A stretch of 64,000 nucleotides of DNA, from assembly GCF_041913525.1 (NCBI RefSeq), contig NZ_JAYSFD010000002.1, forward strand, positions 5,186 to 69,185, read 5' to 3'. This DNA is from Hydrogenophaga sp. Its GTDB lineage: Bacteria; Pseudomonadota; Gammaproteobacteria; Burkholderiales; Burkholderiaceae_C. Shown here in pieces: positions 4,808 to 22,039 of the stretch. The stretch's first letter is position 1. Each line of letters begins with the position of its first letter. Both the position numbers and the translations under genes were made by a program. The notes under the pieces are model-generated. The model ran no database searches, was not told the DNA's origin, and saw nothing but the letters and a program-made list of their open reading frames with translations.

Positions 4808-5203
4808 TCAGTCCGCCACCACGCGGGCCGCGTCCAGCGTGCGCAGGCGCGCGTCGTGGTAATAGCCGCCGTATTCCGTGTAGCGCAGAAACGGCTTCTG
4901 GCAGGCCTTGCAGGCCCACACCTCGCATCGGTTGTAGGGAAAGAAGCCCAGCGCGATCGGCGCCTGCGGCGACCACTGGTCAATGCCCGGCGGGCGCTGC
5001 TCCTCCAGCGTGGGCTCGGGTGTGTCGTGCGCGGGCGACCACAGCGCGCCCAGGCACTGCAGGGCCGCGTCGCTCACGGTGGAGGGGAAAGAGTCCCAGC
5101 CAGCGCGGTCAAAGGGCTGGCAGGCGGGGCAGGGCGGCTGGTGGCCGTGTTGCTCGGCCAGGGCGCGCACCTGGGCTGCGCTCAACGGGGTAGGGCTTGT
5201 CAT
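4808..5203 (-). CDS. Hypothetical Cys-rich protein (CPAC...CEVWACKAC)
   Basis: 131-aa ORF with genome-typical codon bias. I recognise no family. The paired Cys motifs suggest a Zn-ribbon-like fold. Confidence 0.6.
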   Translation of the reverse strand: MTSPTPLSAAQVRALAEQHGHQPPCPACQPFDRAGWDSFPSTVSDAALQCLGALWSPAHDTPEPTLEEQRPPGIDQWSPQAPIALGFFPYNRCEVWACKACQKPFLRYTEYGGYYHDARLRTLDAARVVAD

Positions 5204-5235
5204 GGCCGGGCATTGTGCCCGGCCGGGTGACCGCT

Positions 5236-5853
5236 TCAGCCCGCCTGGCGCAAGGCGAAGGCGCGCTGCGCCGCCGGTCGTGCCAGGCAGCGGGCGTGCC
5301 AGGCCCGTGCATAGGGCACGGCTTCGCGGGCCATGTCGTTCAGGCGCTGCAGCACGGCGGCCACGTTCAGGTCGGCCACGGTGAAGCCATTGCCCACCAG
5401 GTAGTCGCGCGTGGCCAGGTGCTCGTCAAGCACGCGCAGGCGGGCCTGCAGCTTCTCCAGCGCCTCGTCGGCCAGGCGCGGGATGCGCTGCGCCTCGGGC
5501 AGGAAGGCGGTGTGGTGGAACCACTGGCGGGCCAGGGGCTCGGCCTCGGTGGCGGCCCACAGCGTCCATTGGCCGATGCGCGCTTCGTCGGCCACGTTGC
5601 TGGCCCACAGGCCGCCCGCGGGGCGGCTGCGCGCCAGGTGCAGGGTGATGGCCAGCGACTCGAACAGCACTAGGCCGTCGTCGTCGATGGCCGGCACTGT
5701 GCCATTGGGGTTCAGGGCCAGGTAGGGCGCCTCACGCGTCTCGGGTGCGTTGTAGTGCAGGCGGATGTGCTCGTAGGGAATGCCCAGCTCTTCCGCCGCC
5801 CACAGGGGACGGATGGCGCGCGAGGCGGCGATGCCGTAGATCTTCAGGCTCAT
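5236..5853 (-). CDS. Glutathione S-transferase
   Basis: 205 aa with an N-terminal thioredoxin-like GST domain (LNPNGTVPAIDDDGLVLFESLAI) and a C-terminal helical domain. Confidence 0.9.
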   Translation of the reverse strand: MSLKIYGIAASRAIRPLWAAEELGIPYEHIRLHYNAPETREAPYLALNPNGTVPAIDDDGLVLFESLAITLHLARSRPAGGLWASNVADEARIGQWTLWAATEAEPLARQWFHHTAFLPEAQRIPRLADEALEKLQARLRVLDEHLATRDYLVGNGFTVADLNVAAVLQRLNDMAREAVPYARAWHARCLARPAAQRAFALRQAG

Positions 5854-5889: not shown

Positions 5890-7362
5890 TCAGCAGGCCA
5901 GGGCCATGCCGTCCTTGCGGCGGTCCGATCCGCCAATGAGGCGGCCGTCCGGGGCGCGCATCACCACCTGGGCACCGCCAAAGTCGCTGCGCCCGCCCAG
6001 TTCGCCCTGGCCTGTGGGCTCGGTGTAGCCGGCGGCCCGCAGGGCCTGTTCGATGGCAGGTGGCGTGCCGGCCTCGATGGCCAGGGCGCGCTCGCCTTCC
6101 AGGCGCCAGCGTGGCGCGTCGATGGCGGCCTGCAGCGGCTCGCCCCAGGCCGCCACGCGGGTGAGGATCTGCACATGGCCCTGCGGCTGCATGGCGCCGC
6201 CCACCACGCCGAAGCCAGCGTGGAACACGCCGCCCCGCAGGGCCGCGCCGGGCACCACCGTGTGGTACGGCCGCTTGCCGGGCCCGGGGCCGTTGAGGTG
6301 ACCCGGCTCCGAGAAACCGAAGCCCCGGTTCTGCAGCACAAAGCCGCAACCGGGCACGCCAATGCCTGAGCCAAAGCGCTTGAAGACGCTGCTCATCAGG
6401 GTGATGGCCAGGCCATCGCTGTCCACCACCACGGTGCACACCGTGTTGCCGGCGGGGTCGGCCACCACCTTCTTGGCGTGGGCCATGGCCTCGCCCATGC
6501 GGTCCACCATGGCCACGGTGGTGAGCGGGTCGTGCGGGTCAAGGTCAAGCGCGTCCAGTGCCTGCAGTGTGTGCAGCACGGCCAGGCCGTGGGTGTTGGG
6601 TGGGCACTCCAGCACTTCCAGGCCTCGGAAGTTGGCGCGCAGCGGCGCAGCGAAGTGGCCTGTGTGCCGGGCAAAGTCTTGCGCCTTCAAGACGCCGCCC
6701 AGTGTGTCGCTGGCGCGCTCGGCCGCGCGCGCGGGCTCGCCCAGGTAGAAGGCATCGGGCCCCTCGTTGGCCACCGCCTGCAGCACCGCGCCCAGTTCGG
6801 GGTTGGCGAAGCGCTCGCCAGCGCTGGGAACGGCGTGGGCGCGGTAGAGCGCGGCGGCCACCGGGTCGCGGGCGATCACGGGCTGGAACAGGGCCCATTC
6901 GCGCGCCGCCACGGGCGCCACGGGGAAGCCTTGGTTGGCCACGCGAATGGCGTCTTGAAACAGCCGCTGCCAGGGCAGGCGCCCATGTCGCTGGTGCAGG
7001 TCGTGCCAGCCTCGCACCACGCCGGGCACGGTGGCGGTGAGCATGTGGCGCTCGGGCAGCTTGCCGCGCGGGAAGGCGCTCACCAGTGAAGGCAGCAAGT
7101 CTTGCGGCGAGCGGCCGGTGCCGTTGTAGGCCTGGGGCTCGGCCCCGGGCGGCACCACCATGGCCAGCAGGTCACCGCCAATGCCGGTGGCCATGGGCTC
7201 CACCACGCCCAGCACCGCGTCGGCCGCGATGGCCGCGTCCACCGCGCTGCCGCCTTCGGCCAGCGCGCTGGCGGCCGCCTCGGCGGCCAGGGGGTGGCCG
7301 GTGGCCACCATGGCCCGTTCACCGATGACGCAGGGGGAAGTGGAAGGGGTAGGGGGCGGCAT
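5890..7362 (-). CDS. ggt: Gamma-glutamyltransferase family protein, no signal peptide
   Basis: Start trimmed to ATG 7362 (MPPPTPSTS...). 490 aa with GGT motifs (ATGIGGDL, NTVCTVVVD autoprocessing-Thr region, GGSDRRKDG). The upstream part of the 634-aa ORF crosses low-GC non-coding DNA. Confidence 0.85.
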   Translation of the reverse strand: MPPPTPSTSPCVIGERAMVATGHPLAAEAAASALAEGGSAVDAAIAADAVLGVVEPMATGIGGDLLAMVVPPGAEPQAYNGTGRSPQDLLPSLVSAFPRGKLPERHMLTATVPGVVRGWHDLHQRHGRLPWQRLFQDAIRVANQGFPVAPVAAREWALFQPVIARDPVAAALYRAHAVPSAGERFANPELGAVLQAVANEGPDAFYLGEPARAAERASDTLGGVLKAQDFARHTGHFAAPLRANFRGLEVLECPPNTHGLAVLHTLQALDALDLDPHDPLTTVAMVDRMGEAMAHAKKVVADPAGNTVCTVVVDSDGLAITLMSSVFKRFGSGIGVPGCGFVLQNRGFGFSEPGHLNGPGPGKRPYHTVVPGAALRGGVFHAGFGVVGGAMQPQGHVQILTRVAAWGEPLQAAIDAPRWRLEGERALAIEAGTPPAIEQALRAAGYTEPTGQGELGGRSDFGGAQVVMRAPDGRLIGGSDRRKDGMALAC

Positions 7363-7394
7363 GGGCGGGCTCCTGGAGAATGATGGGTGATTAT

Positions 7395-7407
7395 GAATAC
7401 AGTATAC
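7395..7407. promoter_or_regulatory. GTATAC-N-GTATAC-type palindrome, copy A1 (GAATAC A GTATAC)
   Basis: One mismatch to the 13-bp palindrome. It lies 33 nt upstream of the ggt start codon. Confidence 0.6.
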
Positions 7408-7420
7408 CGATTGAGCCGAT

Positions 7421-7462
7421 TCGATGGCGGTGAGTCGATGGCGGTGAGTCGATGGCGGGTGC
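7421..7462. repeat. 14-bp direct tandem repeat x2.9 (TCGATGGCGGTGAG)
   Basis: Units at 7421-7434 and 7435-7448 are identical. The unit at 7449-7462 is degenerate. Confidence 0.9.
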
Positions 7463-7503
7463 TGCCAAGCCACTTTCAACCGGTTCGGCGAGGGATTTTG
7501 GGT

Positions 7504-7519
7504 TGGCACGCTCCGTGCT
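7504..7519 (+). promoter_or_regulatory. Possible sigma-54 (-24/-12) promoter TGGCACG-N5-TGCT
   Basis: TGGCACGCTCCGTGCTT has GG and GC at the canonical 10-nt spacing. It faces the permease gene about 385 nt downstream. No enhancer-binding protein is present in the window. Confidence 0.35.
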
Positions 7520-7539
7520 TGATATCGGCTTGTGCATCG

Positions 7540-7552
7540 GTATACCGTATAC
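7540..7552. promoter_or_regulatory. GTATAC-N-GTATAC palindrome, copy A2 (perfect)
   Basis: GTATAC C GTATAC in the ggt/permease intergenic region. Confidence 0.7.
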
Positions 7553-7671
7553 ATGGTTAGCCAAAAGGTGCACAGGGAGTGGAAGCCGAAGAGAGGATGG
7601 TCTCCAGAGTGAAGAAATCGAATGCTTTGGCGTTCGACTTTGCATGGGAAAACCCTGAGCCTCTTCAAACT

Positions 7672-7684
7672 GTATGTTGTATAC
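7672..7684. promoter_or_regulatory. GTATAC-N-GTATAC-type palindrome, copy A3 (GTATGT T GTATAC)
   Basis: One mismatch. Located in the same intergenic region. Confidence 0.6.
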
Positions 7685-7705
7685 GATTCGGTGCGCAGGG
7701 ACGGA

Positions 7706-7723
7706 GGAAGCCCCAAAAAGGGG
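7706..7723 (+). promoter_or_regulatory. Shared leader element GGAAGCCCCAAAAAGGGG
   Basis: Near-identical to 15027-15045 (GGAAAGCCCCCAAAAGGCC). Both copies lie next to GTATAC palindromes and face the downstream + strand gene. Confidence 0.45.
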
Positions 7724-7903
7724 AAAGCGCACCCAAGTGGTGAATGCAGGAGAAGCGCCAGCGGGCGGATGGTCAGCGATCCGCCCGTTGCCAAACGAAG
7801 TGAAGTGAGGGAAAGCGCCGCGCCCGGTCAGGCATGACGGGGCGAGGTGACATCGCAACAGCGGGCCGGCCCACGACGGCTCATACCAATTTGATAGGTC
7901 AAC

Positions 7904-9430
7904 ATGGATTCCAACGTAACACTGACAGCTGCGCACTGGATGTACCTGATCGGGGTCATCAGCATCATCGTCACGATGATGTTCCGCGCCAACGTGCTGG
8001 TGCCGTCGATTGCCGCCACTTTTCTGGTGGCCTTCGCCTGGACCGGCAGCCCCATCGGGGCATTGGGCAGCATTTACAGCGCCAGCCTGGTGGCGGCCAA
8101 GGAGTTATTCAACATCTTCCTGGTCATTGCCTTGATGACGGCGCTGCTCAACAGCCTGAAGGACCTGAAGTCCGACATCCTGATGGTGCGGCCCTTCCGC
8201 GTGCTCATGAAGAACGGCACGGTGTCTTACCTGCTGCTGGGCCTGATCACCTACCTGATCTCGCTGTTCTTCTGGCCCACCCCGGCCGTGCCGCTGGTGT
8301 GCGCCGTGTTGTTGCCCGCCGCCATTGCCGCCGGCCTGCCCCCGCTGGTGGGCGCCGCTGCCGTGGCCATTGCCGGTCAGGGCATGGCGCTGTCGTCTGA
8401 CTACGTGATCGGCGTGGCGCCCATGATCAGCGCCAAGGCCGCCGGTGCCTCGGCCGCCGTGATTGGTGACCGCGCCCTGGTGCTGTCGCTCATCACTGGT
8501 GCCGTGGCCCTGCTGCTGGTGTACCTGTTCCAGCGCCGCACCTTCCAGCCGGCCAACCCGCTGCTGCTCAAGCGCTGGCAGGCCCTGGCCACCACGGGCG
8601 AACTGGTGAGCCACGAAGGCACCGCGCACAAGGCGGAAATCGCCCAAGGCACCAGCCACGAAGAAGACCTGTCCACCAACCAGAACATCGAACGCGAGCT
8701 GGCCTCGCTGCCGCCCGAGCAGGCCAAGTGGTCGCGCGTGTTCGCCCTGGTGACCCCGCTGGTGTTCCTGGTGATCGTGGTGCTGATGGCACTGCCCAAG
8801 TTCGGCGTGCCGCTGGGCGACCTCAAGGGTGGGGCGGCTGCCTCGCTGGTGGGCGGCGCTGCCGGCCTGCTGATGATCTTCGCCACCCTGGCCATGAAGG
8901 GCTCCAAGGGCATGCTGGAAGCCAGCGCCGACCACATCACCGAGGGTTTTGTGTTCGCCTTCCGCGCCATGGGTTCGGTGCTGCCGATCGCGGGCTTCTT
9001 CTTCCTGGGTGCCAGCGAATCCGCTGCCGCCATCTTTGGCACCGCCGCCAACCAGACGCCCAGTTTCCTGTTTGAGCTGGTGGCCGGCGCGCAGGACTGG
9101 ATTCCCCACAGCAAGGTTTTCGTGGCCTTCGGTCTGCTGATCGTGGGCATGGTCACCGGCATCGACGGTTCGGGCTTCTCTGGCCTGCCGCTGACCGGCG
9201 CACTGGCGGGCGCCATGGGCCCCGTCTCGAACATGGACTCAGCCACCCTGGCCGCGATCGGTCAGATGGGGGCCATCTGGACCGGGGGTGGGACGTTGAT
9301 TGCGTGGTCTTCGCTGATCGCCGTGGCCGGGTTCGCCCGTGTCTCGGTGACCGATCTGGTGAGGGCCTTGACGCTACCGGTATTGCTGGGCCTGAGCGCG
9401 GCCACCTTGGCCGCCGTGGTGATCTTCTGA
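7904..9430 (+). CDS. Polytopic membrane permease, IT-superfamily-like (NhaC/GntP/DcuC-type two-half architecture)
   Basis: 508 aa. Two hydrophobic halves are separated by a charged loop (HEGTAHKAEIAQGTSHEEDLSTNQNIERE). The exact family is not resolved by eye. Confidence 0.75.
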   Translation: MDSNVTLTAAHWMYLIGVISIIVTMMFRANVLVPSIAATFLVAFAWTGSPIGALGSIYSASLVAAKELFNIFLVIALMTALLNSLKDLKSDILMVRPFRVLMKNGTVSYLLLGLITYLISLFFWPTPAVPLVCAVLLPAAIAAGLPPLVGAAAVAIAGQGMALSSDYVIGVAPMISAKAAGASAAVIGDRALVLSLITGAVALLLVYLFQRRTFQPANPLLLKRWQALATTGELVSHEGTAHKAEIAQGTSHEEDLSTNQNIERELASLPPEQAKWSRVFALVTPLVFLVIVVLMALPKFGVPLGDLKGGAAASLVGGAAGLLMIFATLAMKGSKGMLEASADHITEGFVFAFRAMGSVLPIAGFFFLGASESAAAIFGTAANQTPSFLFELVAGAQDWIPHSKVFVAFGLLIVGMVTGIDGSGFSGLPLTGALAGAMGPVSNMDSATLAAIGQMGAIWTGGGTLIAWSSLIAVAGFARVSVTDLVRALTLPVLLGLSAATLAAVVIF

Positions 9431-10633: not shown

Positions 10634-11449
10634 TCAAGTCAGCCAGGCCGAATGAAGCATCTTGGCCGCCAGCACGAAGAGGAAGGCCGCGAACACCCGC
10701 TTGAGCGTGGCCACCGGCAGCCGTGCCGCCAGACGGGCGCCCACAGGGGCCATCAGCACGCCCGGAATCAACACACCCAGAAACGCCGGCAAATAAATGA
10801 AGCCCAGGCTGCCCGCTGGCAGATCCACTGTTCCGCGACCACCAATGAAGAACATCACCGCGCCCATGATGGCAATGGGCAGGCCCAGCGCCGCCGACGT
10901 GCCCACGGCGCGGTGCATGTTCACGTTGCACCAGGTCATGAAGGGCACCGAAAGAAAGCCGCCTCCGGCCCCCACCAGCTGCGACAGCGCGCTGATGGCC
11001 GTGCCCACGCCGGCCAGGCCGAGCGCGCCGGGCAACTGGCGCGTGGGCTTGGGCTTGGCGTTGAGGAACATCTGCAGCGCCGAGTACGAGACAAACACCG
11101 CGAACAGCATCGCCAGCGCGGTGGTGCTGAGCTGCTTGGCCAGCCAGCCGCCCACCAGGCCACCCAGCAGGATGCCCGGTGCGATGCCGCGCACGATGGA
11201 CCAGTCCACATTGCCCTTGGCGTGGTGGGTGCGCGCGCTGGAGATCGAGGTGAACACGATGATGGCCAGCGAGGTGCCCAGTGCCATGTGCACCAGCGAG
11301 GCGCGGGCAAAGCCCTGGGCCTCGAACAGCCAGGTGAGCAAAGGCACGAACAGCATGCCCCCGCCAATGCCCAGCAGGCCCGCGGCAAAACCACCGGCCA
11401 CGCCCAGGGCGAGGTAGGCGGGCAACCAATGCAAGAAATCGACGCTCAT
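10634..11449 (-). CDS. TauE/SafE-family (DUF81) anion exporter/permease
   Basis: Start trimmed to ATG 11449 (MSVDFLHWLPAYLALGVAGGFAAGLLGIGGG). 271 aa with about 8 TM and the duplicated GxGGG motifs typical of TauE. Confidence 0.88.
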   Translation of the reverse strand: MSVDFLHWLPAYLALGVAGGFAAGLLGIGGGMLFVPLLTWLFEAQGFARASLVHMALGTSLAIIVFTSISSARTHHAKGNVDWSIVRGIAPGILLGGLVGGWLAKQLSTTALAMLFAVFVSYSALQMFLNAKPKPTRQLPGALGLAGVGTAISALSQLVGAGGGFLSVPFMTWCNVNMHRAVGTSAALGLPIAIMGAVMFFIGGRGTVDLPAGSLGFIYLPAFLGVLIPGVLMAPVGARLAARLPVATLKRVFAAFLFVLAAKMLHSAWLT

Positions 11450-11605: not shown

Positions 11606-12259
11606 ATGACCCTGCTGAAGAAGGAAGCCACCCTGGGCGCCGCCCATTCGCCGCTGACCACGCTGGTGGTCGAGGCCTTGCGCGACCGCATCCTCAGCGG
11701 TGCCATTCCACCGGGCGAGCGCCTGGTGGAGAGCCGCCTCTCGGAAGAACTGGGGGTGTCGCGCATGCCGGTGCGCGAGGCGCTGCGGCAGCTCGCATCG
11801 GAAGGCCTGGTCACCATCGAGCCGCGCCGGGGCGCGTCGGTCACGTCGTTCAGCCCCGAGCAGGTGCGCGAACTGGTGGAAGTGCGCGCCACGCTCGAAG
11901 GCCTGAACGCCAAGCTGGCGGCCCAGCGCCACGACGCCCGGCAAATTGCCGAGATGGAAAAAATTCTGGAAGAGGGCGCGCGCCTGGCCGCGGTGGGCGA
12001 CCCGGCCACGCTGATGCAGATGAACCAGCGTTTTCACGACGCGCTGGGCAGCATCGCCGCCAATTCGGTGTTGCAAGAGATCATGCGGTCGCTGCGCGAC
12101 CGCACGGCCCTGCTGTTCGCGCCCATCAACCGCACGCGTGGCGAACAGAACTGGGACGAGCACGCGGCCATCCTGCGCGCGGTCATCAAGGGCGATGCCG
12201 AACTGGCCGCGCTGCTGGCCATGCGCCACGTGTACAACGCGGCGCAGATGGAGCCCTGA
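11606..12259 (+). CDS. GntR-family (FadR subfamily, FCD domain) transcriptional regulator
   Basis: HTH region GERLVESRLSEELGVSRMPVREALRQLASEGLVTIEPRRGASV, plus a helical FCD C-terminal domain. Confidence 0.92.
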   Translation: MTLLKKEATLGAAHSPLTTLVVEALRDRILSGAIPPGERLVESRLSEELGVSRMPVREALRQLASEGLVTIEPRRGASVTSFSPEQVRELVEVRATLEGLNAKLAAQRHDARQIAEMEKILEEGARLAAVGDPATLMQMNQRFHDALGSIAANSVLQEIMRSLRDRTALLFAPINRTRGEQNWDEHAAILRAVIKGDAELAALLAMRHVYNAAQMEP

Positions 12260-12284: not shown

Positions 12285-13202
12285 TCAGGCGCCGGCTTGC
12301 AGGCGCTGCCACACCAGACCGGCCAGGGCCACGTCTTCCAGGCCCACGCCGACCGACTTGTACAGCGTGATGGCGCTGTCGTCCTGGCGCCCCGGGTGTT
12401 GCCCGGTGACCAGTTCGCCCAGCTCCACGATCTGTTCTTCGCGCAGCACCTCGGGCGCGGCCAGCACCAGGTCGCCGGCCTCGCGCAGCGTCTGCGGTTT
12501 CCACTCCACCGCGATCACGCTGGCGCGCCGCAGGGCGGTGTCGTCCAGTTCGCGGGTGTGCGGCAGGCTGGAGCCGATGGCCGCCACGAAGGCGCCGGGC
12601 TTGAGTTGCGCACCGCCGAAGAGGGGTGTGGTCGAGCGCGAGGCGGTGACCACGATGTCGGCGTCGTCCACCGCTTCGTCGGCGCCACACAGGCGCACCG
12701 GCACGCCGCACAAGGCCTGCAGTTCCTCGGCCACCGTGGGGCTGGCGTAGGGATCGCACACGCGGATGTCGTGCAGCGCGAAGGCCTTGGCCATCTGCTG
12801 CGCGTGCATGCGACCCTGCACACCGGCGCCGAACAGGGCCAGGCGGCGCGCACCCGCGCGGGCCAGGTGGCGCGCCGCGATCACCGAGCAGGCGGCGGTG
12901 CGCAGCCGGGTGATGGCGCCCGCGTCGAATGAGGCCAGGGCGCGGCCGTCCACGGTGGAAAACAGCAGGATCACAAAAGTGAACTGGCCCTTGATGGTGG
13001 TGTAGACCTTGGCGCCGGCCACTTCCTGGCCGGGAATCACCGCGCCCAGGGTGGAGAGCTTCACCCCGCCCGCTTCGGTGCGGATGCGCTCTTGCATGGC
13101 GGCCTCGCCGCGCCCGAAGCGCTCGAAGGCGTCCAGCAGCACGGCCTGGGCCTGCTCGGGGGTGATGGTGGCGTCGACCACGGCGTCCGTGATGTGTTGC
13201 AT
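12285..13202 (-). CDS. Ornithine cyclodeaminase / mu-crystallin family NAD(P) enzyme (imine reductase or cyclodeaminase)
   Basis: 305 aa. GAITRLRTAACSVIAARHLAR and LALFGAGVQGRMH (Rossmann) are typical of OCD/mu-crystallin. Confidence 0.9.
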   Translation of the reverse strand: MQHITDAVVDATITPEQAQAVLLDAFERFGRGEAAMQERIRTEAGGVKLSTLGAVIPGQEVAGAKVYTTIKGQFTFVILLFSTVDGRALASFDAGAITRLRTAACSVIAARHLARAGARRLALFGAGVQGRMHAQQMAKAFALHDIRVCDPYASPTVAEELQALCGVPVRLCGADEAVDDADIVVTASRSTTPLFGGAQLKPGAFVAAIGSSLPHTRELDDTALRRASVIAVEWKPQTLREAGDLVLAAPEVLREEQIVELGELVTGQHPGRQDDSAITLYKSVGVGLEDVALAGLVWQRLQAGA

Positions 13203-13244: not shown

Positions 13245-13994
13245 TCAGTGGCCGGTCAGCACCCGGGCCAGAATGCCCAGCGCGCCCAGGCCGGCCATGC
13301 CCAGCAGCAGCGCGCGCACCCGGGCCGCGGGCACGCGCCCCTTGAGCAGGCCCGAGACCAGAAAGCCGGCCAGCATCCAGGGCATGAGGATCAGGCTGAT
13401 GAGGAACTCGTGCGCGCCCATGCGGCCCACGGCGGTGAGCGCCGCGATCGACACGGCCGAGCCAATGAAGAAGATGGCGCCAAAAGTGCCGCGCAGGCGA
13501 TCGGCCGGCATGTGCTGCATGGCAATGGCAAAGGGCGGTGCGCCCACCGAGGTGATGGTGCCCATCACGCCCGAGGCCAGCCCGGCAATGGTGGTGTTGC
13601 GCAGCGTGGGCATCACGCGCCAGCCAGACAGGCTCAGGCCCACGCCGCTGAGGATCAGCACAGCGAACAGCACCGACAGCGTCTGCGCAGAGAGCAGCGT
13701 CAGGCTGACGGCGGCCACACCGGTGCCCACCACCCGGCCCACCAGGGCCAGGCGCGCCATGGGCCATTCAATGGAGCGGCGGTCGCGCATGCCTGTCATG
13801 AGCGCCAGCGGGCAGCTCAGCACCAGCATGGGGCCGGGCACCAGTTCGGGGAACCAGAGCGCGGCCAGGGGCGAGGCGAACATGGCAAAGCCCAGGCCAC
13901 TGACGCCCTGCAGGCAGGCGCCCACCAGCACCAGGCTGCCCATGGCGAGCAGACGGTCCCAGCCGATGCTGTTCAGCAGATCCAGAAGCGCCAT
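13245..13994 (-). CDS. Second TauE/SafE-family membrane protein
   Basis: Start trimmed to ATG 13994 (MALLDLLNSIGWDRLLAMGSLVLVGACLQGVSGLGFAMF). 249 aa, polytopic. It lies 13 nt downstream of the ferredoxin gene. Confidence 0.82.
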   Translation of the reverse strand: MALLDLLNSIGWDRLLAMGSLVLVGACLQGVSGLGFAMFASPLAALWFPELVPGPMLVLSCPLALMTGMRDRRSIEWPMARLALVGRVVGTGVAAVSLTLLSAQTLSVLFAVLILSGVGLSLSGWRVMPTLRNTTIAGLASGVMGTITSVGAPPFAIAMQHMPADRLRGTFGAIFFIGSAVSIAALTAVGRMGAHEFLISLILMPWMLAGFLVSGLLKGRVPAARVRALLLGMAGLGALGILARVLTGH

Positions 13995-14007: not shown

Positions 14008-14286
14008 TCACCACGAGACGGCGATGTCTCCGCGCACGAAGGTCTGGCAGGCCATGCGGTAGCCGGCCGCGATGTCCTCATCGCTCAGGTGCTTGCGCTC
14101 CTTGGCCTTGACCTCGTCGGTGTGCTCCAGCCCTTGCTCGATGCGGCACTTGCAGGTGCCGCACAGGCCACCGCCGCACTTGAACGGAATGCCGCCCTTT
14201 TCGCGCAGCGACACGCGCAGCAGGTTGCTGTTGTCGGGCGCGCTGGCGACCTTGTGCTCGTTGTTGATGAAGGTGATCTGGATCAT
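14008..14286 (-). CDS. Plant-type [2Fe-2S] ferredoxin (Fdx-2)
   Basis: 92 aa with a CGGGLCGTC...C(RMACQ) = C-x4-C-x2-C...C cluster motif. Its start overlaps the upstream gene stop (ATGA). Confidence 0.9.
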   Translation of the reverse strand: MIQITFINNEHKVASAPDNSNLLRVSLREKGGIPFKCGGGLCGTCKCRIEQGLEHTDEVKAKERKHLSDEDIAAGYRMACQTFVRGDIAVSW

Positions 14287-14615
14287 GGCTGAACAGAAAG
14301 AGGGCGGCTGATGTCGGCAAGGGCCACTGGCACGAGTTCGGCCTGCATCGCCCCGAATGAGCAGAGGTGGTGAAGCTCGCGCCGGGCGGCGTCGAGGGTG
14401 GAGAAAGACTCCAGGAACTTGGAGGGCACGGCGTTGACGGTGACCGGCTCGGTCTCGTCGATGACGCGCACCCGCGTGGGGTTGAGCAGCTCGGCCACCA
14501 CGAAGCGCGCGCGCAGGCGGCCATAAAAGCGGTAGTCGTAGGCTTCCACCGGGTTCAGGCCGGGGCCCGCTTCGCTGCGGAACTGCCCGGGTTTGGAGGT
14601 CAGGATGACGTACAT
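14283..14615 (-). CDS. 110-aa conserved-looking orphan protein between two ferredoxin genes
   Basis: Start trimmed to ATG 14615 (MYVILTSKPGQFRSEAGPGLNPVEAYDYRFYG...). No Cys cluster and no signal peptide. Translationally coupled to Fdx-2. Confidence 0.7.
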   Translation of the reverse strand: MYVILTSKPGQFRSEAGPGLNPVEAYDYRFYGRLRARFVVAELLNPTRVRVIDETEPVTVNAVPSKFLESFSTLDAARRELHHLCSFGAMQAELVPVALADISRPLSVQP

Positions 14616-14635
14616 GGCGCGGTCCTTGCGTGGGG

Positions 14636-14926
14636 TTATTCCTGCACGAGCTCGATGTCGTGCTCCAGCCAGAGCTGGCAGGTCAGGCGATAGCCCTGAT
14701 CGAGCCGCTCGCCCAGCTGCTTCTTCTCTTTCCAGTTGGGTGGGGGCAGGTGCTCGGCACCTGCCAGCACCCGCGTGGCGCACTTGGAGCACTTGCCCAT
14801 GCCGCACTCGTATTTCAGGTGGGGAAAGGGAAATTCCTTGATGCCGGCGCGCACCACCAGATTGGTTTGCGGTTTGACCTCGCCTTGGTAGGTCTGGCCG
14901 TTCTTGTGGAAGGTGACGATGGGCAT
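14636..14926 (-). CDS. Plant-type [2Fe-2S] ferredoxin (Fdx-1)
   Basis: Start trimmed to ATG 14926 (MPIVTFHKNGQTYQGEV). 96 aa with CGMGKCSKC...C(LTCQ) = C-x4-C-x2-C...C. Confidence 0.9.
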   Translation of the reverse strand: MPIVTFHKNGQTYQGEVKPQTNLVVRAGIKEFPFPHLKYECGMGKCSKCATRVLAGAEHLPPPNWKEKKQLGERLDQGYRLTCQLWLEHDIELVQE

Positions 14927-14972: not shown

Positions 14973-14987
14973 AGTATACAGTATACT
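14973..14987. promoter_or_regulatory. Perfect 15-bp palindrome AGTATAC A GTATACT (copy B1)
   Basis: Located in the divergent Fdx-1 / HDO intergenic region. Confidence 0.75.
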
Positions 14988-15065: not shown

Positions 15066-15078
15066 GTATACTGTATAC
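15066..15078. promoter_or_regulatory. Perfect palindrome GTATAC T GTATAC (copy B2)
   Basis: 73 nt upstream of the HDO start codon. Confidence 0.75.
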
Positions 15079-15150: not shown

Positions 15151-15882
15151 ATGTCTCAACTGTTGAACCGCGATGAATTCCGGACCGCCCTCGAAAACGC
15201 CATCAAGGGCAAGAGCGCCAACCAGTCGCCCTTTAGCCTGGCCTGGGCCGGTGGCACCCTCAGCCGCGAGCACCTGGCGCGCTGGGCCGAGAACCACTAC
15301 CACTACGTGGGCCCTTTCGCCGACTACCTGGGCTACCTCTACGCCCGCACCCCCGACCACATGACCGAGGCCAAGGACTTCCTGCTGGCCAACATGTACG
15401 AAGAGGAAATCGGTGGCGACCGTCACACCGACCTGCTGATCCGCTTCGCCGAGGCCTGCGGCACCACCCGTGAGCGCGTGGTTGACCCCGACAACATGTC
15501 GCCCACCACCCGTGGCCTGCAAAGCTGGTGCTACGCCGTGGCCATGCGCGAAGACCCCGTGGTCGCCGTGGCCGGCCTCGTGGTGGGCCTGGAGTCGCAA
15601 GTGCCCTCGATCTACCGCAAGCAAACCCCCACCCTGCGCGAGAAGTACGGCTTCACCGACGAAGAAGTGGAGTTCTTCGACCTGCACATCGTCTCGGATG
15701 AGATCCACGGCGAGCGCGGCTACCAGATCGTGCTGGAGCACGCCAACACCATCGAGCTGCAACAGCGCTGCCTGAAGATTTGCGAGATCGGTGCCCAGAT
15801 GCGCCTGCTCTACACCACCGCGCTCTACAACGACTACGTGGCCCCCACCCTGGACAAGCCCTCGCTGGCCCTGGCCGCCTGA
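15151..15882 (+). CDS. PqqC-fold heme-oxygenase-like diiron oxidase/oxygenase (HDO; iron-containing redox enzyme family)
   Basis: Start at ATG 15151 after the caGGAGcc RBS. 243 aa with PqqC-like N-terminal helices. The full ligand pattern is E85-x6-H92 ... E148 ... H179-x3-D183-x2-H186. Confidence 0.85.
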   Translation: MSQLLNRDEFRTALENAIKGKSANQSPFSLAWAGGTLSREHLARWAENHYHYVGPFADYLGYLYARTPDHMTEAKDFLLANMYEEEIGGDRHTDLLIRFAEACGTTRERVVDPDNMSPTTRGLQSWCYAVAMREDPVVAVAGLVVGLESQVPSIYRKQTPTLREKYGFTDEEVEFFDLHIVSDEIHGERGYQIVLEHANTIELQQRCLKICEIGAQMRLLYTTALYNDYVAPTLDKPSLALAA

Positions 15883-15990: not shown

Positions 15991-17442
15991 ATGCAGACCG
16001 AAGAATTCCTCAACTACATCAATGGCGAATGGGTGAAGTGCCGCAGCGGTCGAACCTTCGACAACATGAACCCGGCCGACACCCGTGAGCTGGTGGGACG
16101 CTTTCAAGCCTCCACCGCGCTGGACGCTGAAGACGCCGTGAACGCCGCCGCCGCCGCCTTTGATGGCTGGCGCCGCACGCCGGTGGGCCAGCGCGCCCGC
16201 CTGCTCAACAAGGCCGCCGACTACCTGGAGGCCAACGCCCAGCGCTTTGGCGAAGAGCTCAGCCGGGAAGAGGGCAAATCGGTCGCCCTGGGCAAGGACG
16301 AGTTCGTGCGCGCCGCGCAGACCTTTCGCTTCTACGCCACCGAAGGCCAGACCTTTGGCGGTGAAACCTATGTGCAAGACGACCCCGACCTGATGGTCTA
16401 CAGCCAGCGCGAGCCGCTGGGGGTGGTCTCGGTGATCTCGCCCTGGAACTTTCCGGCCTCCATCCCGGCGCGCAAGATCGCGCCAGCGCTGGTCACGGGT
16501 AACACCATCGTCTTCAAGCCCTCGTCTGACGCGCCCCTGAGCGGCCTGCGCCTGGTCGAGGCGCTGGTGCACGCCGGCCTGCCGGCGGGCGTCATCAACT
16601 ACATCACCGGCCGCGCCGGCGACGTGGGCCCCATCATCACCACCTCGCAGGCCATTCGCGCCATTTCCTTCACCGGCTCCACCCAGGCGGGCATGCACAT
16701 CCACCGCACGGTGCACCTGACCACGCGCCTGCAGATGGAACTGGGCGGCAAGAACCCGCTGATCGTGATGGAAGACGCCGACCTGGACAAGGCGGTGGAC
16801 CTGGCCATCAAGGGCGGCTTCTCGCTCACCGGGCAGGCCTGCACCGGCACCAGCCGCGTGATCGTGATGAAGGCCGTGAAGGAAGACTTCACCCAGCGCC
16901 TGGTGGCCAAGGTGAAGGGCCTGAAGATCGGCCCTGGTCACCAGCCAGGCATGGACCTCGGCCCCCTGGCCACCGCCAAGCAACTGGAGACGGTGCTGTC
17001 CTACATCGCCATCGGCCGCGCAGAGGCGCAACTGCTGTGCGGCGGCGAGCGCCTGCAAGACGGCGAGTACGCACACGGCTACTACGTGACGCCCGCCATT
17101 TTTGACGGCGTGACGCAAAAGGCTCGCATCGCTCGCGAAGAAATCTTCGGCCCGGTGATCGCCATCCTGGAGGCCGAGTCTTTTGAGCAGGCCATGGCCA
17201 TGGCCAACGACAGCGAGTACGGCCTCTCGGCCGCCATCGCCACGCGCAACCCGCGCTACATCCACCAGTTCTCCAACGACATCCAGTCGGGCACGGTGAA
17301 GATCAACCGGACCACCACCGGCAACCTCATCAACGCACCCTTCGGCGGCGTGAAGAACTCCAGCACCTCCACCTTCCGCGAGTCTGGCCGCGTGGGCCTG
17401 GAGTTCTTCACCCAGACCAAGGTCGTTTACCGCGGCCTCTGA
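15991..17442 (+). CDS. NAD(P)-dependent aldehyde dehydrogenase
   Basis: 483 aa with ALDH motifs (ISPWNFP, FTGST, ELGGKNP, catalytic Cys in GQACTG). Confidence 0.93.
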   Translation: MQTEEFLNYINGEWVKCRSGRTFDNMNPADTRELVGRFQASTALDAEDAVNAAAAAFDGWRRTPVGQRARLLNKAADYLEANAQRFGEELSREEGKSVALGKDEFVRAAQTFRFYATEGQTFGGETYVQDDPDLMVYSQREPLGVVSVISPWNFPASIPARKIAPALVTGNTIVFKPSSDAPLSGLRLVEALVHAGLPAGVINYITGRAGDVGPIITTSQAIRAISFTGSTQAGMHIHRTVHLTTRLQMELGGKNPLIVMEDADLDKAVDLAIKGGFSLTGQACTGTSRVIVMKAVKEDFTQRLVAKVKGLKIGPGHQPGMDLGPLATAKQLETVLSYIAIGRAEAQLLCGGERLQDGEYAHGYYVTPAIFDGVTQKARIAREEIFGPVIAILEAESFEQAMAMANDSEYGLSAAIATRNPRYIHQFSNDIQSGTVKINRTTTGNLINAPFGGVKNSSTSTFRESGRVGLEFFTQTKVVYRGL

Positions 17443-17479: not shown

Positions 17480-17959
17480 ATGAAGACTTCCCTGAAACTG
17501 CAACTCGACGAAGCCCGCCGCATGGCCGCCGCCGCGCTGGACAAGGCCCAGGCCCTGGGCGTGCCCGAGACCGTGTGCATCACCGACGAAGGCGGCTTTC
17601 CGCTGGTGCTTGAGCGCATGGACGGCGCCCGCGTGACTGGCCCGCAAATCGCTTGGAACAAGGCCTTCACCGCCGCCGGCCACAAGCGTTCCACCCACCT
17701 CTTCAACACCGCGCCCAACGGCCCCGCGCTGCCTGGCAACGAGGCCTTCGGCATCCAGTGGAGCTTCGAGGGCAAGTTCGCCGTGTTCGTCGGCGGCTTC
17801 CCCATCGTGGTGAATGGCGAGGTGGTGGGCGGCGTGGGCCTGAGCGGCGGCAACGGCGAGCAAGACACCGCCTGCGGCCTGGCCGCCCTGCAAGCCCTCA
17901 AGGACCTGCTGGCTCCCAGCGGCCAGGACGTCCTGGTGCAGGCCGACATCAAGAAGTGA
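17480..17959 (+). CDS. GlcG/HbpS-family (DUF336) heme-binding-like protein
   Basis: 159 aa. ...VCITDEGGFPLVLERMDGA... and GGFPIVVNGEVVGGVGLSGG are hallmark GlcG motifs. Confidence 0.88.
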   Translation: MKTSLKLQLDEARRMAAAALDKAQALGVPETVCITDEGGFPLVLERMDGARVTGPQIAWNKAFTAAGHKRSTHLFNTAPNGPALPGNEAFGIQWSFEGKFAVFVGGFPIVVNGEVVGGVGLSGGNGEQDTACGLAALQALKDLLAPSGQDVLVQADIKK

Positions 17960-17976: not shown

Positions 17977-18981
17977 ATGGCACACCGCGTCACTTGGCTG
18001 GAAACCGGCCAGGCCTTCGAGGCACAGGCCGACGAACCCGTGCTGTCGGCCGCGCTGCGCTGCTCGGTCGAGCTGCAGCACGACTGCCGCTTCGGTGGCT
18101 GCGGCACCTGCCGGGTCAAGCTGGTGGAGGGCCGCGTCGAGTACGACGAGCTGCCCATGGGCCTGAGCGAAGAAGAGGCCGAGGCCGGCTATGCCCTGCT
18201 GTGCCAGGCACGCGCCTGCTCTGACCTGGTCATCAGCGCCGAGCCCTTGCAGGGCTGCAGCCCGCCCACGCGCCTGCTGGCCTGCGTCACCGAGGTGTGC
18301 GCGCTGGCCGATGACGTCACCCACCTGCGCCTGGAGCTGCCCGACGACAGCCTGCAGTTCCGCCCCGGCCAGTACATGAACGTGCTGCTCGAAGACGGCA
18401 GCCACCGCAGCTTCTCCATGGCCTCGCGCCCGCAAGGCGCGGTGGTGGACTTTCACGTGCGCCGCATCGACGGCGGGCGCTTCACCGACCACGCCGTGCG
18501 CGCCCTGCAAGTGGGCGACGCGCTGGAGGTGGAGCTGCCTCTGGGCGGCTTTCACCTGCACACCCAAGACTACCGGCCCCTGGTGATGATGGCCACCGGC
18601 ACCGGCCTGGCCCCGCTCAAAAGCATGCTGGAGTCGCTGATGGACGACCCCGACTGCCCACCCGTGAGCCTTTACTGGGGCGCGCGCACCGAGGCCGACC
18701 TGTACCTCGATGCCGAGATCCGCACCTGGGGTGAGCGCCTGTACGAGTTCCGCTACGAGCCGGTGCTCTCCCGCGCGTCGGCGGGCTGGGCCGGCCGGCG
18801 CGGTCATGTGCAAGACGCGGTGCTGCAAGACGTGCAAGACCTGGGCGAGTGCGCCTTTTACTTGTGCGGCTCGCCGGCCATGATCGCCGACGCCCGGGCA
18901 GCCCTTATCGCCCGAGGCGCCGACCCCGACTTCATCTACACCGACAGCTTCCTGTTCCAGCACGAGCCGGCCACGGCCTGA
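17977..18981 (+). CDS. [2Fe-2S]-FAD-NAD(P)H oxidoreductase (N-terminal plant-type ferredoxin fused to an FNR-like module)
   Basis: Start at ATG 17977 (MAHRVTWLETGQ). CRFGGCGTC...C motif, RSFSMAS flavin motif and MMATGTGLAP NAD motif. The architecture matches oxygenase reductases of the MmoC/DmpP/AscD type. Confidence 0.9.
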   Translation: MAHRVTWLETGQAFEAQADEPVLSAALRCSVELQHDCRFGGCGTCRVKLVEGRVEYDELPMGLSEEEAEAGYALLCQARACSDLVISAEPLQGCSPPTRLLACVTEVCALADDVTHLRLELPDDSLQFRPGQYMNVLLEDGSHRSFSMASRPQGAVVDFHVRRIDGGRFTDHAVRALQVGDALEVELPLGGFHLHTQDYRPLVMMATGTGLAPLKSMLESLMDDPDCPPVSLYWGARTEADLYLDAEIRTWGERLYEFRYEPVLSRASAGWAGRRGHVQDAVLQDVQDLGECAFYLCGSPAMIADARAALIARGADPDFIYTDSFLFQHEPATA

Positions 18982-20349: not shown

Positions 20350-21027
20350 ATGCCTCGCTTCATCGCCTCTTCTCTTGTCACCACGGCCCGCGCCCGCTGG
20401 CGGCACGGGTTCGTTCTCGTGCTGCTGGCCTGGCTGCCCGTGCTGGCCTCGGCCCAGGCCCGGGGCGAGGCACGCGCCGAGGCGCTGTACCGCCAGCATT
20501 GCGCCCAGTGCCACGGGGCCAACAAGCAGGGCGGGCCCGGTGTGCCCGACCTGTCGGGCGGTCTGGCGGCCTGGGGCCGCAGCGCCGAGTCCATCGCACA
20601 GACCATTCGCCACGGCATTCGCGTGCCCGGCCATGCGGCCACCCGGGGCGGCATCATGCCCGCCTTCAAGACCAATGCCGCCGAGTTCTCCGACGACGAG
20701 GTGCACGAACTGGTGGAATACCTCTTGCAACTGCGCCAGCAGCCGGCCGATGCCGCCGCCGCTTTGCGCGGCAAAGCCAACTTTGAATGGTGCGTGGCCT
20801 GCCACGGCCAGGACGCGCGCGGCAACACCAGCGTGGGCGGCCCCAACCTGCTGGCGCCGCGCCTGCAATACGGCGCCACGCGCCAGGCCCTGTTCGAGAG
20901 CATCGCCCAGGGCCGTGCCGGCACCTGCCCGCCCTGGGAAGGGCGCCTGGATGCCGCCGACATCGACACCCTGGCCCGTCACCTCGCTGGCGGCATGGCG
21001 AAGTCGCCCTCTCAATCCCAACCCTGA
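20350..21027 (+). CDS. Diheme c-type cytochrome (CcoP-like soluble domains)
   Basis: 225 aa with a signal/anchor (FVLVLLAWLPVLASAQA) and two CxxCH motifs (CAQCH, CVACH). No obvious SD, so the start is uncertain. Confidence 0.85.
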   Translation: MPRFIASSLVTTARARWRHGFVLVLLAWLPVLASAQARGEARAEALYRQHCAQCHGANKQGGPGVPDLSGGLAAWGRSAESIAQTIRHGIRVPGHAATRGGIMPAFKTNAAEFSDDEVHELVEYLLQLRQQPADAAAALRGKANFEWCVACHGQDARGNTSVGGPNLLAPRLQYGATRQALFESIAQGRAGTCPPWEGRLDAADIDTLARHLAGGMAKSPSQSQP

Positions 21028-21033
21028 AACACC

Positions 21034-21513
21034 ATGAGCCTGATCGAACGGGTAGACGCCAGCGCCTACGCGGAGTGGATTCGCAACTCCGACATCCTGT
21101 ACCCCCTGCTGCAGGTGGTGCACATCATCGGCATCTCCATCGTGGTGGGCTCGCTCATCGCGGGCAATGTGCGAGTGCTCGGCGCCGCCCGCGACCTGCC
21201 GCTGCGCGATTTTTCGCGCCACCTCTACCGCTGGGTGCTGGTGGGGCTGGTGCTGTTCCTGCTGACCGGCGTGCACATGGCGGTGGCCTTTCTGCACATC
21301 TTCGCCGTCAACCCGGTGATGGGCATCAAGCTGGTGCTGCTGGCACTGGCCGTGGCCGTCAACGTCTATCTGTACCGCTGGCAGTTCGCGGCAGCGGTGG
21401 CCCCGACCCAGGCCGGCGCACGCCAGAAGGCGTTGGCGGCGCTGTCGGTGCTCTTGCTGCTGACCATCATCGTGATGGGCAAGTTGCTGGCCTACATCGG
21501 CGGCAAAGACTGA
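21034..21513 (+). CDS. 4-TM membrane protein of unknown function (paralog 1)
   Basis: 159 aa. It aligns with the next gene (H-I/L-x-G...VG...LR-V/L-LG...LP...NP...KLVL). Confidence 0.75.
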   Translation: MSLIERVDASAYAEWIRNSDILYPLLQVVHIIGISIVVGSLIAGNVRVLGAARDLPLRDFSRHLYRWVLVGLVLFLLTGVHMAVAFLHIFAVNPVMGIKLVLLALAVAVNVYLYRWQFAAAVAPTQAGARQKALAALSVLLLLTIIVMGKLLAYIGGKD

Positions 21514-21547: not shown

Positions 21548-22039
21548 ATGACCGAATTCCTGCTTCAACTCAAATACTCCGCCTACGGCACCTGGGTCGG
21601 CACCTCGCTCTGGGGCTACGCCATCTTCGAGAGCCTGCACCTGATGGGCGTGGCCCTGCTGGTGGGCGCCATCACCCTCACCGACCTGCGCCTGCTGGGT
21701 TTCTCGCGCGTGCTGCCGGTGACGCTCACCGAGAAGTACTTGCTGCCCTGGGTGTGGTCGGGCTTCGCCATCGTGGTGTTCAGCGGCGTGAGCATGTTCA
21801 TCACCGACGGTTCTTACTTTCTGGAGAACCCCTTCCTGCTGTCCAAGCTGGTGCTCATCGTGCTGGCCGGGCTGAACGCGGGCTTCTTCCAGTTCCGTGT
21901 GCACCGCAGCGTGGCGGCCTGGGACGCCCAGCAGCCTTCGCCCGCGCTGGCCCGCCTGTGCGCGGCCCTGTCCATCGGCTTCTGGTTCCTGGCCGTGGCC
22001 TGCGGCCGCCTGATCGCCTACCCCGAACTCTGGTCCTGA
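21548..22039 (+). CDS. 4-TM membrane protein of unknown function (paralog 2)
   Basis: 163 aa, paralogous to 21034-21513. Confidence 0.75.
   Translation: MTEFLLQLKYSAYGTWVGTSLWGYAIFESLHLMGVALLVGAITLTDLRLLGFSRVLPVTLTEKYLLPWVWSGFAIVVFSGVSMFITDGSYFLENPFLLSKLVLIVLAGLNAGFFQFRVHRSVAAWDAQQPSPALARLCAALSIGFWFLAVACGRLIAYPELWS

Follow-up and report, generated by a model that had tools for sequence, protein, structure and literature searches.

A small cofactor-less protein encoded between two ferredoxin genes is very probably an accessory part of a heme-oxygenase-like dimetal enzyme system

What does a small protein without a cofactor do between two ferredoxins? The question is raised by a 64,000-nucleotide stretch of DNA from Hydrogenophaga sp. 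(contig NZ_JAYSFD010000002.1 of assembly GCF_041913525.1, positions 5,186 to 69,185), which we call the window and to which all coordinates refer unless a locus in another genome is named. In it the gene for a 110-residue protein, here termed X, lies between the genes for two [2Fe-2S] ferredoxins, Fdx-1 and Fdx-2, and a gene for a heme-oxygenase-like dimetal enzyme (HDO) is transcribed divergently from these three (Table 1). HDOs are a fast-growing class that includes UndA, BesC, SznF, CADD, AetD and MboA. An earlier reading of the window, made from the sequence alone and referred to below as the sequence-only reading, had described X as an orphan, and had proposed that it may gate electron transfer to the HDO. 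We find that X is conserved and always encoded beside the HDO and its ferredoxins, which makes X very probably a hitherto unrecognized accessory protein of the HDO enzyme system.

X is a genuine gene of a conserved family. Its reading frame runs from an ATG at 14615-14613 to a TGA at 14285-14283, and its translation is identical to the one given in the sequence-only reading. Exactly 20 nucleotides separate the start codon from the TAA stop codon of Fdx-1 (14638-14636), and an AAGGA Shine-Dalgarno sequence lies 7 nucleotides 5' of the ATG. At the other end of the gene, in the junction CAGCCATGATCCAG (rendered a second time as GCCATGATCC), the TGA of X and the ATG of Fdx-2 share the four nucleotides ATGA. 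Both the overlap and the gap are exactly as they had been read. A longer, GTG-started open reading frame (ORF) reported by the ORF finder at 14283-14807 was rejected; it runs into Fdx-1, and it is not the gene because all homologues share the start methionine of M-Y-V-I-L-T-S-K-P-G. The GC content at codon positions 1, 2 and 3 is 0.68, 0.45 and 0.85, values that a genuine gene should have in a sequence of 68% GC. Contigs of riverine and subsurface metatranscriptomes include X and extend across its junction with Fdx-2 at 95-100% identity, which suggests that X is expressed, although DNA carry-over is possible.

The predicted product is a soluble protein of 12.3 kDa with a pI of 6.7. Its maximum Kyte-Doolittle value over 19 residues is only 1.34, so that no transmembrane segment is expected. 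The protein contains one cysteine (C85) and two histidines, none of which is conserved in the family: among 83 X sequences C85 is found in 17, H82 in two and H83 in 55. The earlier description of X as lacking both a cysteine cluster and a membrane segment therefore holds.

In a word-indexed search of 5.8 billion proteins, X homologues made up 168 clusters at the 90% identity level. When 1.84 billion representatives of clusters at 50% identity were searched exhaustively with a profile, only 108 were found, nearly all of them 95-115 residues long, and the family is thus a small one that stands alone. A strict N-terminal pattern picked out X in no fewer than 127 species genomes among 185,579, from the Comamonadaceae and other Burkholderiales, Bordetella/Achromobacter, the Acetobacteraceae, Bradyrhizobium/Xanthobacteraceae, Azospirillum and Methylocella. 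Paraburkholderia, Aminobacter and Billgrantia have more divergent versions, as do a Bacillaceae genome and an AT-rich contig from a marine metagenome. Characteristic members measure about 97-113 residues, and the N-terminal motif M-Y-[VI]-I-L-T-S-K-P-G forms a predicted hairpin. Lys 8, Tyr 28, Asn 61 and Lys 66 are near-universal, even at 20-35% identity, and Ala 77 and Leu 84 are further conserved positions. In one genome, that of Bordetella genomosp. 2 (locus L041, from 10001), the reading frame opened by X stays open for 778 codons and finishes in phase with the gene for an ornithine cyclodeaminase (OCD) family protein. We regard this as an oddity of read-through or start calling; the stop codon may have been lost, GC-rich DNA may lack stops in this frame, or the assembly may be at fault.

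No Pfam family matched X at E<=1 and no NCBIfam family matched it at all, and in 57 members of the X family neither collection gave a match even at E<=10. Searches of the PDB sequences with X, both as a single sequence and as a profile, returned nothing significant. The label "orphan" is therefore correct in that X has no annotated family and incorrect in that it has homologues in so many clusters; the suggestion that X represents an unrelated new family is borne out, as it matches no known family and is conserved well beyond this genome. Judged from its sequences, X founds a small family hitherto without annotation. Proteins of this type appear as "ferredoxin" at NCBI (for example WP_409638842.1 and WP_246669413.1) and as "hypothetical protein" at JGI.

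The structure of X was predicted with AlphaFold2 from an alignment of 57 sequences, with a mean predicted local distance difference test score of 91.5 and a predicted TM-score (pTM) of 0.83. The model has seven strands and one helix, in the order six strands (residues 2-8, 12-15, 20-30, 33-43, 48-53 and 59-64), helix (74-85) and strand (92-96). The same secondary-structure elements were recovered for the X domain of a fusion protein (P0122, described below) that is 54% identical to X. A Foldseek comparison of the model with 350,542 PDB chains, a check that the sequence-only reading had proposed, gave no match at E<=1e-3 and a best TM-score of 0.31, and nothing significant was found in BFVD. 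The best BFVD match, a phage WGR-domain protein (TM-score 0.39-0.42, E 0.86), was dropped as a possible relative because the F-Y-G-R stretch of X is not kept in distant members. On the basis of the model, the fold of X is apparently novel, with no detectable structural relatives.

These results bear on two identities that X might be given. That X is a ferredoxin, or a degenerate one that has lost its cluster, is suggested by the NCBI name and by nothing else, and we consider it extremely improbable: X has no conserved cysteine, none of the 57 members matched PF00111, and the predicted topology is not a beta-grasp. HHalign gave X a probability of 0.1% against the Fdx-1 profile and 0.2% against that of Fdx-2, compared with 99.3% in a control alignment of Fdx-1 with Fdx-2. 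On these sequence comparisons the NCBI name is wrong, and proteins in which X is fused to Fdx-2 (P0394 and P0122) are probably the source of the name on stand-alone X. The other identity is that of a divergent member of the MmoB/DmpM/TmoD effector family; X is of comparable size, lacks a cofactor and is placed among the electron-transfer genes of a diiron oxygenase. However, PF02406 had no match at E<=10 in the 57 members, as the sequence-only reading had anticipated in finding X unlike MmoB, DmpM and TmoD, and no effector protein was among the top 50 PDB rows of the Foldseek search. The partner of X, moreover, is a protein of the heme-oxygenase fold (PF14518, CADD-like) and not a ferritin-like alpha-beta(-gamma) diiron hydroxylase, and no bacterial multicomponent monooxygenase hydroxylase gene was found among the genes called in the fetched loci. 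We therefore give membership in this family hardly any probability. As far as sequence and predicted fold allow, both identities are refuted. DmpK (PF06099), MmoD and PqqD (PF05402) were also tried and were absent from the Pfam scans of the 57 members at E<=10, and no structures of these types were in the Foldseek top 50; as far as these tools can tell, X is not DmpK/MmoD-, PqqD- or frataxin-like, nor is it a Rieske ferredoxin.

We probed 80 X-seeded genome loci by tblastn with the proteins of the window; the counts hold where the contig reaches. The order Fdx-1, X, Fdx-2 is kept, with Fdx-1 about 300-430 nucleotides upstream of X and Fdx-2 about 296-346 nucleotides downstream. The HDO gene mostly lies no more than about 1.4 kb from X; in three loci (L032, L036 and L046) the distance is 2-8 kb. 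When the search was seeded with the HDO instead, X was found in three of three loci (Paraburkholderia, Aminobacter and Billgrantia) at 45-52% identity. Distant X proteins, of 20-35% identity, likewise have genes for the HDO, for an HbpS-like protein and for one or more Fer2 proteins beside them in all four of their loci (Bacillaceae, the marine metagenome contig and two others). Co-occurrence with the HDO, another check that had been proposed, is thus strict from all three starting points. Wherever the flanks are long enough, X is accompanied by an HDO that resembles CADD, an HbpS-like protein and one or more [2Fe-2S] ferredoxins, in hosts that include Beta-, Alpha- and Gammaproteobacteria as well as the Bacillaceae genome and the marine contig. 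The core of the module is the HDO, X, the HbpS-like protein and one or two ferredoxins. The marine contig carries this minimal set, with a ferredoxin and the HDO on one strand and X, the HbpS-like protein and a ferredoxin on the other. The cluster often also encodes a reductase of the BenC/MmoC type, an aldehyde dehydrogenase, a regulator of the GntR/FCD type and a membrane protein of about 510 residues; other companions vary, among them TauE, an OCD-family enzyme, gamma-glutamyltranspeptidase (GGT), creatininase, an aspartate dehydrogenase (Asp-DH)-like protein and RidA.

The members of the module evolve at very different rates. X is the fastest, with a mean p-distance of 0.40, and the HDO the slowest, at 0.14. 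The window HDO is 77-79% identical to the Bacillaceae and marine versions, where X is only 25-31% identical, and across the Alpha- and Betaproteobacteria the HDO is 79-96% identical in loci where X ranges from 25 to 76%. Such a combination fits an accessory role for X better than a catalytic one. In a mirror-tree comparison the distances of X correlated with those of the HDO (r 0.71), the HbpS-like protein (0.71), Fdx-2 (0.60) and Fdx-1 (0.53), which is a weak hint confounded by phylogeny.

Both flanking proteins are, from their sequence motifs, bona fide plant-type [2Fe-2S] ferredoxins. Their four or five cysteines are invariant (in 83 of 83 Fdx-1 and 80 of 80 Fdx-2 sequences), and the fifth invariant cysteine of Fdx-2, C47, adjoins the cluster motif. 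Across about 80 loci, the median pI is 8.4-8.6 for the ferredoxins, 5.1-5.3 for the HDO, 4.7 for the reductase and near neutral for X. A basic pI is unusual for plant-type ferredoxins, and this pattern of basic ferredoxins and acidic HDO fits docking between them.

X is connected with Fdx-2 in particular. The distance from the X stop codon to the Fdx-2 start is -4 (ATGA) in 25 of 78 loci and mostly 0-40 nucleotides in the others, a spacing that suggests translational coupling of the two genes. Natural X::Fdx-2 fusions were found in P0122 (204 residues), P0394 (199 residues), P0138 (partial) and L032 (219 residues), the last being an ORF at about 4891-5550 of an Aquabacterium metagenome-assembled genome. 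The P0122 and L032 fusions contain Pro/Ala-rich linkers of 15-25 residues that are absent from the separate genes, and thus are not simple frameshift artefacts of the ATGA overlap.

What might X contribute to such a system? The reading that we favor, and hold with about even confidence, is that X, itself redox-inert, serves in docking or coupling within a multicomponent HDO oxygenase. Electrons would pass from NAD(P)H through the reductase to Fdx-1 and Fdx-2, and these would in turn reduce the HDO, an acidic protein, at its dimetal site. X, having no redox centre, would attach to Fdx-2, to the HDO or to both as a subunit for docking or coupling, and its binding would make HDO reduction and O2 activation productive. 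We infer the binding by X, the direction of electron flow and the gating effect; that X may gate electron transfer is suggested by the gene order, the translational coupling, the X::Fdx-2 fusions and an analogy with known effectors. MmoB, DmpM and T4moD (PF02406) are, like X, cofactor-less proteins of about 10-16 kDa encoded among the reductase and ferredoxin genes of an O2-activating dimetal oxygenase, and the presumed role, redox-inert coupling of electron delivery to O2 activation, would be alike. X differs from them in its sequence, its predicted fold, its fusions to a ferredoxin and its partner, which is seven-helix and heme-oxygenase-like where theirs is ferritin-like and alpha-beta-gamma. 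A bolder version, which we regard as possible but doubtful, would make X the first protein effector of an HDO, a convergent counterpart of MmoB with a novel structure that together with the two dedicated basic ferredoxins and the HbpS-like protein gates reduction and O2 activation. Several observations weigh against a docking or coupling role. A 2026 review (PMC13108848) concludes that none of the HDOs examined to date requires a protein effector. The partial mirror-tree correlations of X, likewise weak and confounded by phylogeny, are 0.39 with the HDO, 0.35 with the HbpS-like protein and 0.29 with Fdx-2. In the AlphaFold2 model of the P0122 fusion (pTM 0.56), the X domain is again confident, the Fdx-2 half is poor, owing to a shallow alignment, and no interface is readable. 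Finally, Billgrantia and the Bacillaceae genome each have a single ferredoxin in the cluster, of the Fdx-2 type in the former and the Fdx-1 type in the latter, and in both X is not adjacent to it and is transcribed separately, so that X cannot depend on a specific ferredoxin gene in cis.

Three other roles have to be set against docking or coupling. X could be a metallochaperone or a cofactor-assembly or maintenance factor that supplies or retains Fe(II) or Mn(II) for the labile HDO site or aids the ferredoxins in re-reducing and repairing it, in a role analogous to that of MmoD and DmpK or of the YfaE and XylT maintenance ferredoxins. HDO dimetal sites are weakly bound and dynamic (reviewed in PMC13108848), the carboxylates E15, D27, E54 and E80 of X are conserved along with lysines, X is strictly linked to the HDO, and Fdx-2 weakly resembles the ribonucleotide reductase (RNR) maintenance ferredoxin YfaE (E 4e-4, far below the cut-off). 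Nevertheless we consider this role unlikely, given that X has no conserved histidine or cysteine, that distant members keep only the polar K8, Y28, N61 and K66 and not the carboxylates, that neither Pfam nor Foldseek revealed any similarity of X to DmpK, MmoD or frataxin, and that fusion to a ferredoxin is not expected of an iron donor. A purely structural role, in which X is a non-catalytic subunit that stabilizes or oligomerizes the oxygenase or an HDO-HbpS-like complex in the manner of the gamma subunits of multicomponent monooxygenase hydroxylases, would agree with mirror-tree distances that track the HDO and the HbpS-like protein best and with the retention of X in the cluster when it is apart from the ferredoxin genes. 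It is quite unlikely, however, because a fall of X to 25-31% identity beside an HDO that stays at 77-96% would be unusual for tightly packed subunits, and because the gene order groups X with the ferredoxins and the known fusions join it to Fdx-2, never to the HDO. We think it distinctly unlikely that X is a small pathway enzyme (an isomerase, tautomerase or deaminase) or a binder, carrier or sensor for a substrate, intermediate or aldehyde. The four near-universal residues could form an active or binding site, and reactive species seem to occur in the pathway, judging from the aldehyde dehydrogenase, RidA (in L092) and the EfgA-like HbpS family, but X is the fastest-evolving protein of the module, resembles no enzyme family or fold, is kept even in the minimal marine cluster and is fused to a ferredoxin.

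Known systems resemble the module in part. YfaE of class Ia RNR and XylT/NahT are also small plant-type [2Fe-2S] ferredoxins that re-reduce one non-heme iron enzyme, although their systems are not known to include an X-like protein. XylT and NahT occur with a DUF336 protein, NahX, in meta-cleavage operons. MboA-MboB of mangotoxin biosynthesis, described in 2026, is possibly the first dedicated HDO-redox partner pair, and it has been proposed that an acidic patch on MboA recruits the redox partner by way of a basic patch on the latter (PMC13185094). As in the module studied here, an acidic HDO and a basic partner are found there, and a dedicated flavin/[2Fe-2S] reductase of the BenC/T4moF type is encoded in the cluster, but the mangotoxin system has no free ferredoxins, X or HbpS-like protein, and is biosynthetic while the module looks catabolic. 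We found no paper on this HDO/ferredoxin/X module.

In this module an HDO is tied to a reductase, to two ferredoxins, to an HbpS-like protein and to a protein without a cofactor. X is very probably an accessory protein of a multicomponent dimetal oxygenase built on the HDO scaffold, with an unrelated and apparently novel fold. Should X influence the delivery of electrons or the activation of O2, control of HDOs by a protein would become directly testable, and the system would be a natural, catalytically competent (multi-turnover) HDO for biocatalysis. If X should prove to be an effector, the module would be the first true "multicomponent HDO monooxygenase", apparently a catabolic one. Our findings also establish a new protein family, correct a widespread misannotation as "ferredoxin", and point to an uncharacterized, probably catabolic pathway with its own transporter family that lacks annotation.

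The nearest solved relative of the HDO is CADD, the 4-aminobenzoate (pABA) synthase (1RCW/8VA9, E 1e-16); PqqC is more distant. The HDO aligns with CADD and retains the metal-ligand motifs E-x7-H, ESQ and H-x3-D-x2-H. CADD sacrifices its own Tyr27 (PMC9522330). In the HDO this residue is replaced by Ser29, and Lys152 of CADD by glutamine, which rules out a self-sacrificing pABA synthase of the CADD type; presumably the HDO is a different, multi-turnover enzyme that acts on a free substrate. CADD also differs in having no ferredoxin or X partners. The closest solved relatives of the HbpS-like protein are 2A2L (of unknown function), NahX (9JTH, E 6e-18), the PduO-type protein 5CX7 and the formaldehyde sensor EfgA (6BWS).

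Table 1. Features of the window in and around the HDO/ferredoxin/X module
Feature	Coordinates	Strand	Description
GGT ORF	5890-7794	-	Recurrent module neighbor in unrelated taxa (L001, L004, L088, L089, L092)
Membrane protein	7904-9430	+	508 residues, polytopic, presumed substrate importer
GntR/FCD regulator	11606-12259	+	Likely repressor of the regulon
OCD/mu-crystallin family protein	12285-13202	-	Ketimine-reductase-like; last gene of the operon
TauE/SafE-family anion exporter	13245-13994	-	Downstream of Fdx-2, in the same operon direction
Fdx-2	14008-14286	-	92-residue [2Fe-2S] ferredoxin; PF00111 E 3.9e-14; Cys37/42/45/80 and Cys47 invariant
X	14283-14615	-	110-residue cofactor-less protein; based on ORF, ribosome-binding site, GC at codon position 3, family alignments and AlphaFold2 fold
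Spacer, Fdx-1 stop to X start	14616-14635	-	20 nucleotides; holds the AAGGA Shine-Dalgarno sequence
Fdx-1	14636-14926	-	96-residue [2Fe-2S] ferredoxin; PF00111 E 1.7e-9; Cys41/46/49/83 invariant; pI 8.4
Palindrome GTATACAGTATAC	14974-14986		Putative GntR/FCD operator
Palindrome GTATACTGTATAC	15066-15078		Second copy, upstream of HDO
HDO	15151-15882	+	243-residue heme-oxygenase-like dimetal enzyme; PF14518; divergent from the Fdx-1/X/Fdx-2 operon
Aldehyde dehydrogenase	15991-17442	+	2,5-dioxovalerate/alpha-ketoglutarate semialdehyde dehydrogenase (KGSADH)-like, below equivalog cut-offs; frequent, not universal, in the cluster
HbpS-like/DUF336 protein (GlcG-type)	17480-17959	+	Universal module member, 65-94% identical
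BenC/MmoC-type reductase	17977-18981	+	Fer2, FAD and NAD domains

The other genes of the neighborhood suggest what kind of pathway the module serves. A catabolic role is likely from the regulator, porin, importer and dehydrogenase encoded in the cluster. For the 508-residue membrane protein, no relative was found in Pfam, NCBIfam or the PDB. It accompanies the module in most loci, with 50-81% identity, and probably represents a transporter family without annotation. Taken together, the neighbors GGT, KGSADH-like aldehyde dehydrogenase, OCD, TauE, creatininase, Asp-DH-like protein, RidA and DAO may indicate a small nitrogen-containing acid as the substrate, possibly gamma-glutamylated or sulfonated, although no assignment is justified. 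The recurrence of GGT in itself hints at a gamma-glutamylated substrate or precursor. The true start of the GGT gene is probably about 140 codons further in, because the Pfam match begins at residue 176. A second TauE/SafE exporter gene lies beside the GntR gene at 10634-11440 on the minus strand, less than 3 kb from the copy inside the X operon. Beyond the reductase, on the plus strand, a dihaem-cytochrome-c-like ORF (20350-21027) is followed by two genes for membrane proteins of about 160 residues (21034-21513 and 21548-22039), one of which matches DUF6644 and the other no family; all three appear unrelated to the HDO module.

The module genes also share a promoter element. The sequence GTATAC-N-GTATAC occurs four times in the window, against none expected, and is present in both divergent promoter regions. 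The copy at 14974-14986 overlaps the -10 element of a sigma70-like promoter (15000 to 14973, minus strand) that faces Fdx-1/X/Fdx-2. In addition to the copy upstream of the HDO, two more (7395-7407 and 7540-7552) lie between the GGT and membrane protein genes. In 29 other loci, exact copies precede Fdx-1 or the HDO (for example L001, 9566-9578, and L055, 8777-8789). The palindrome is a putative operator of the GntR/FCD regulator, and X, the HDO, the transporter and GGT likely belong to one regulon.

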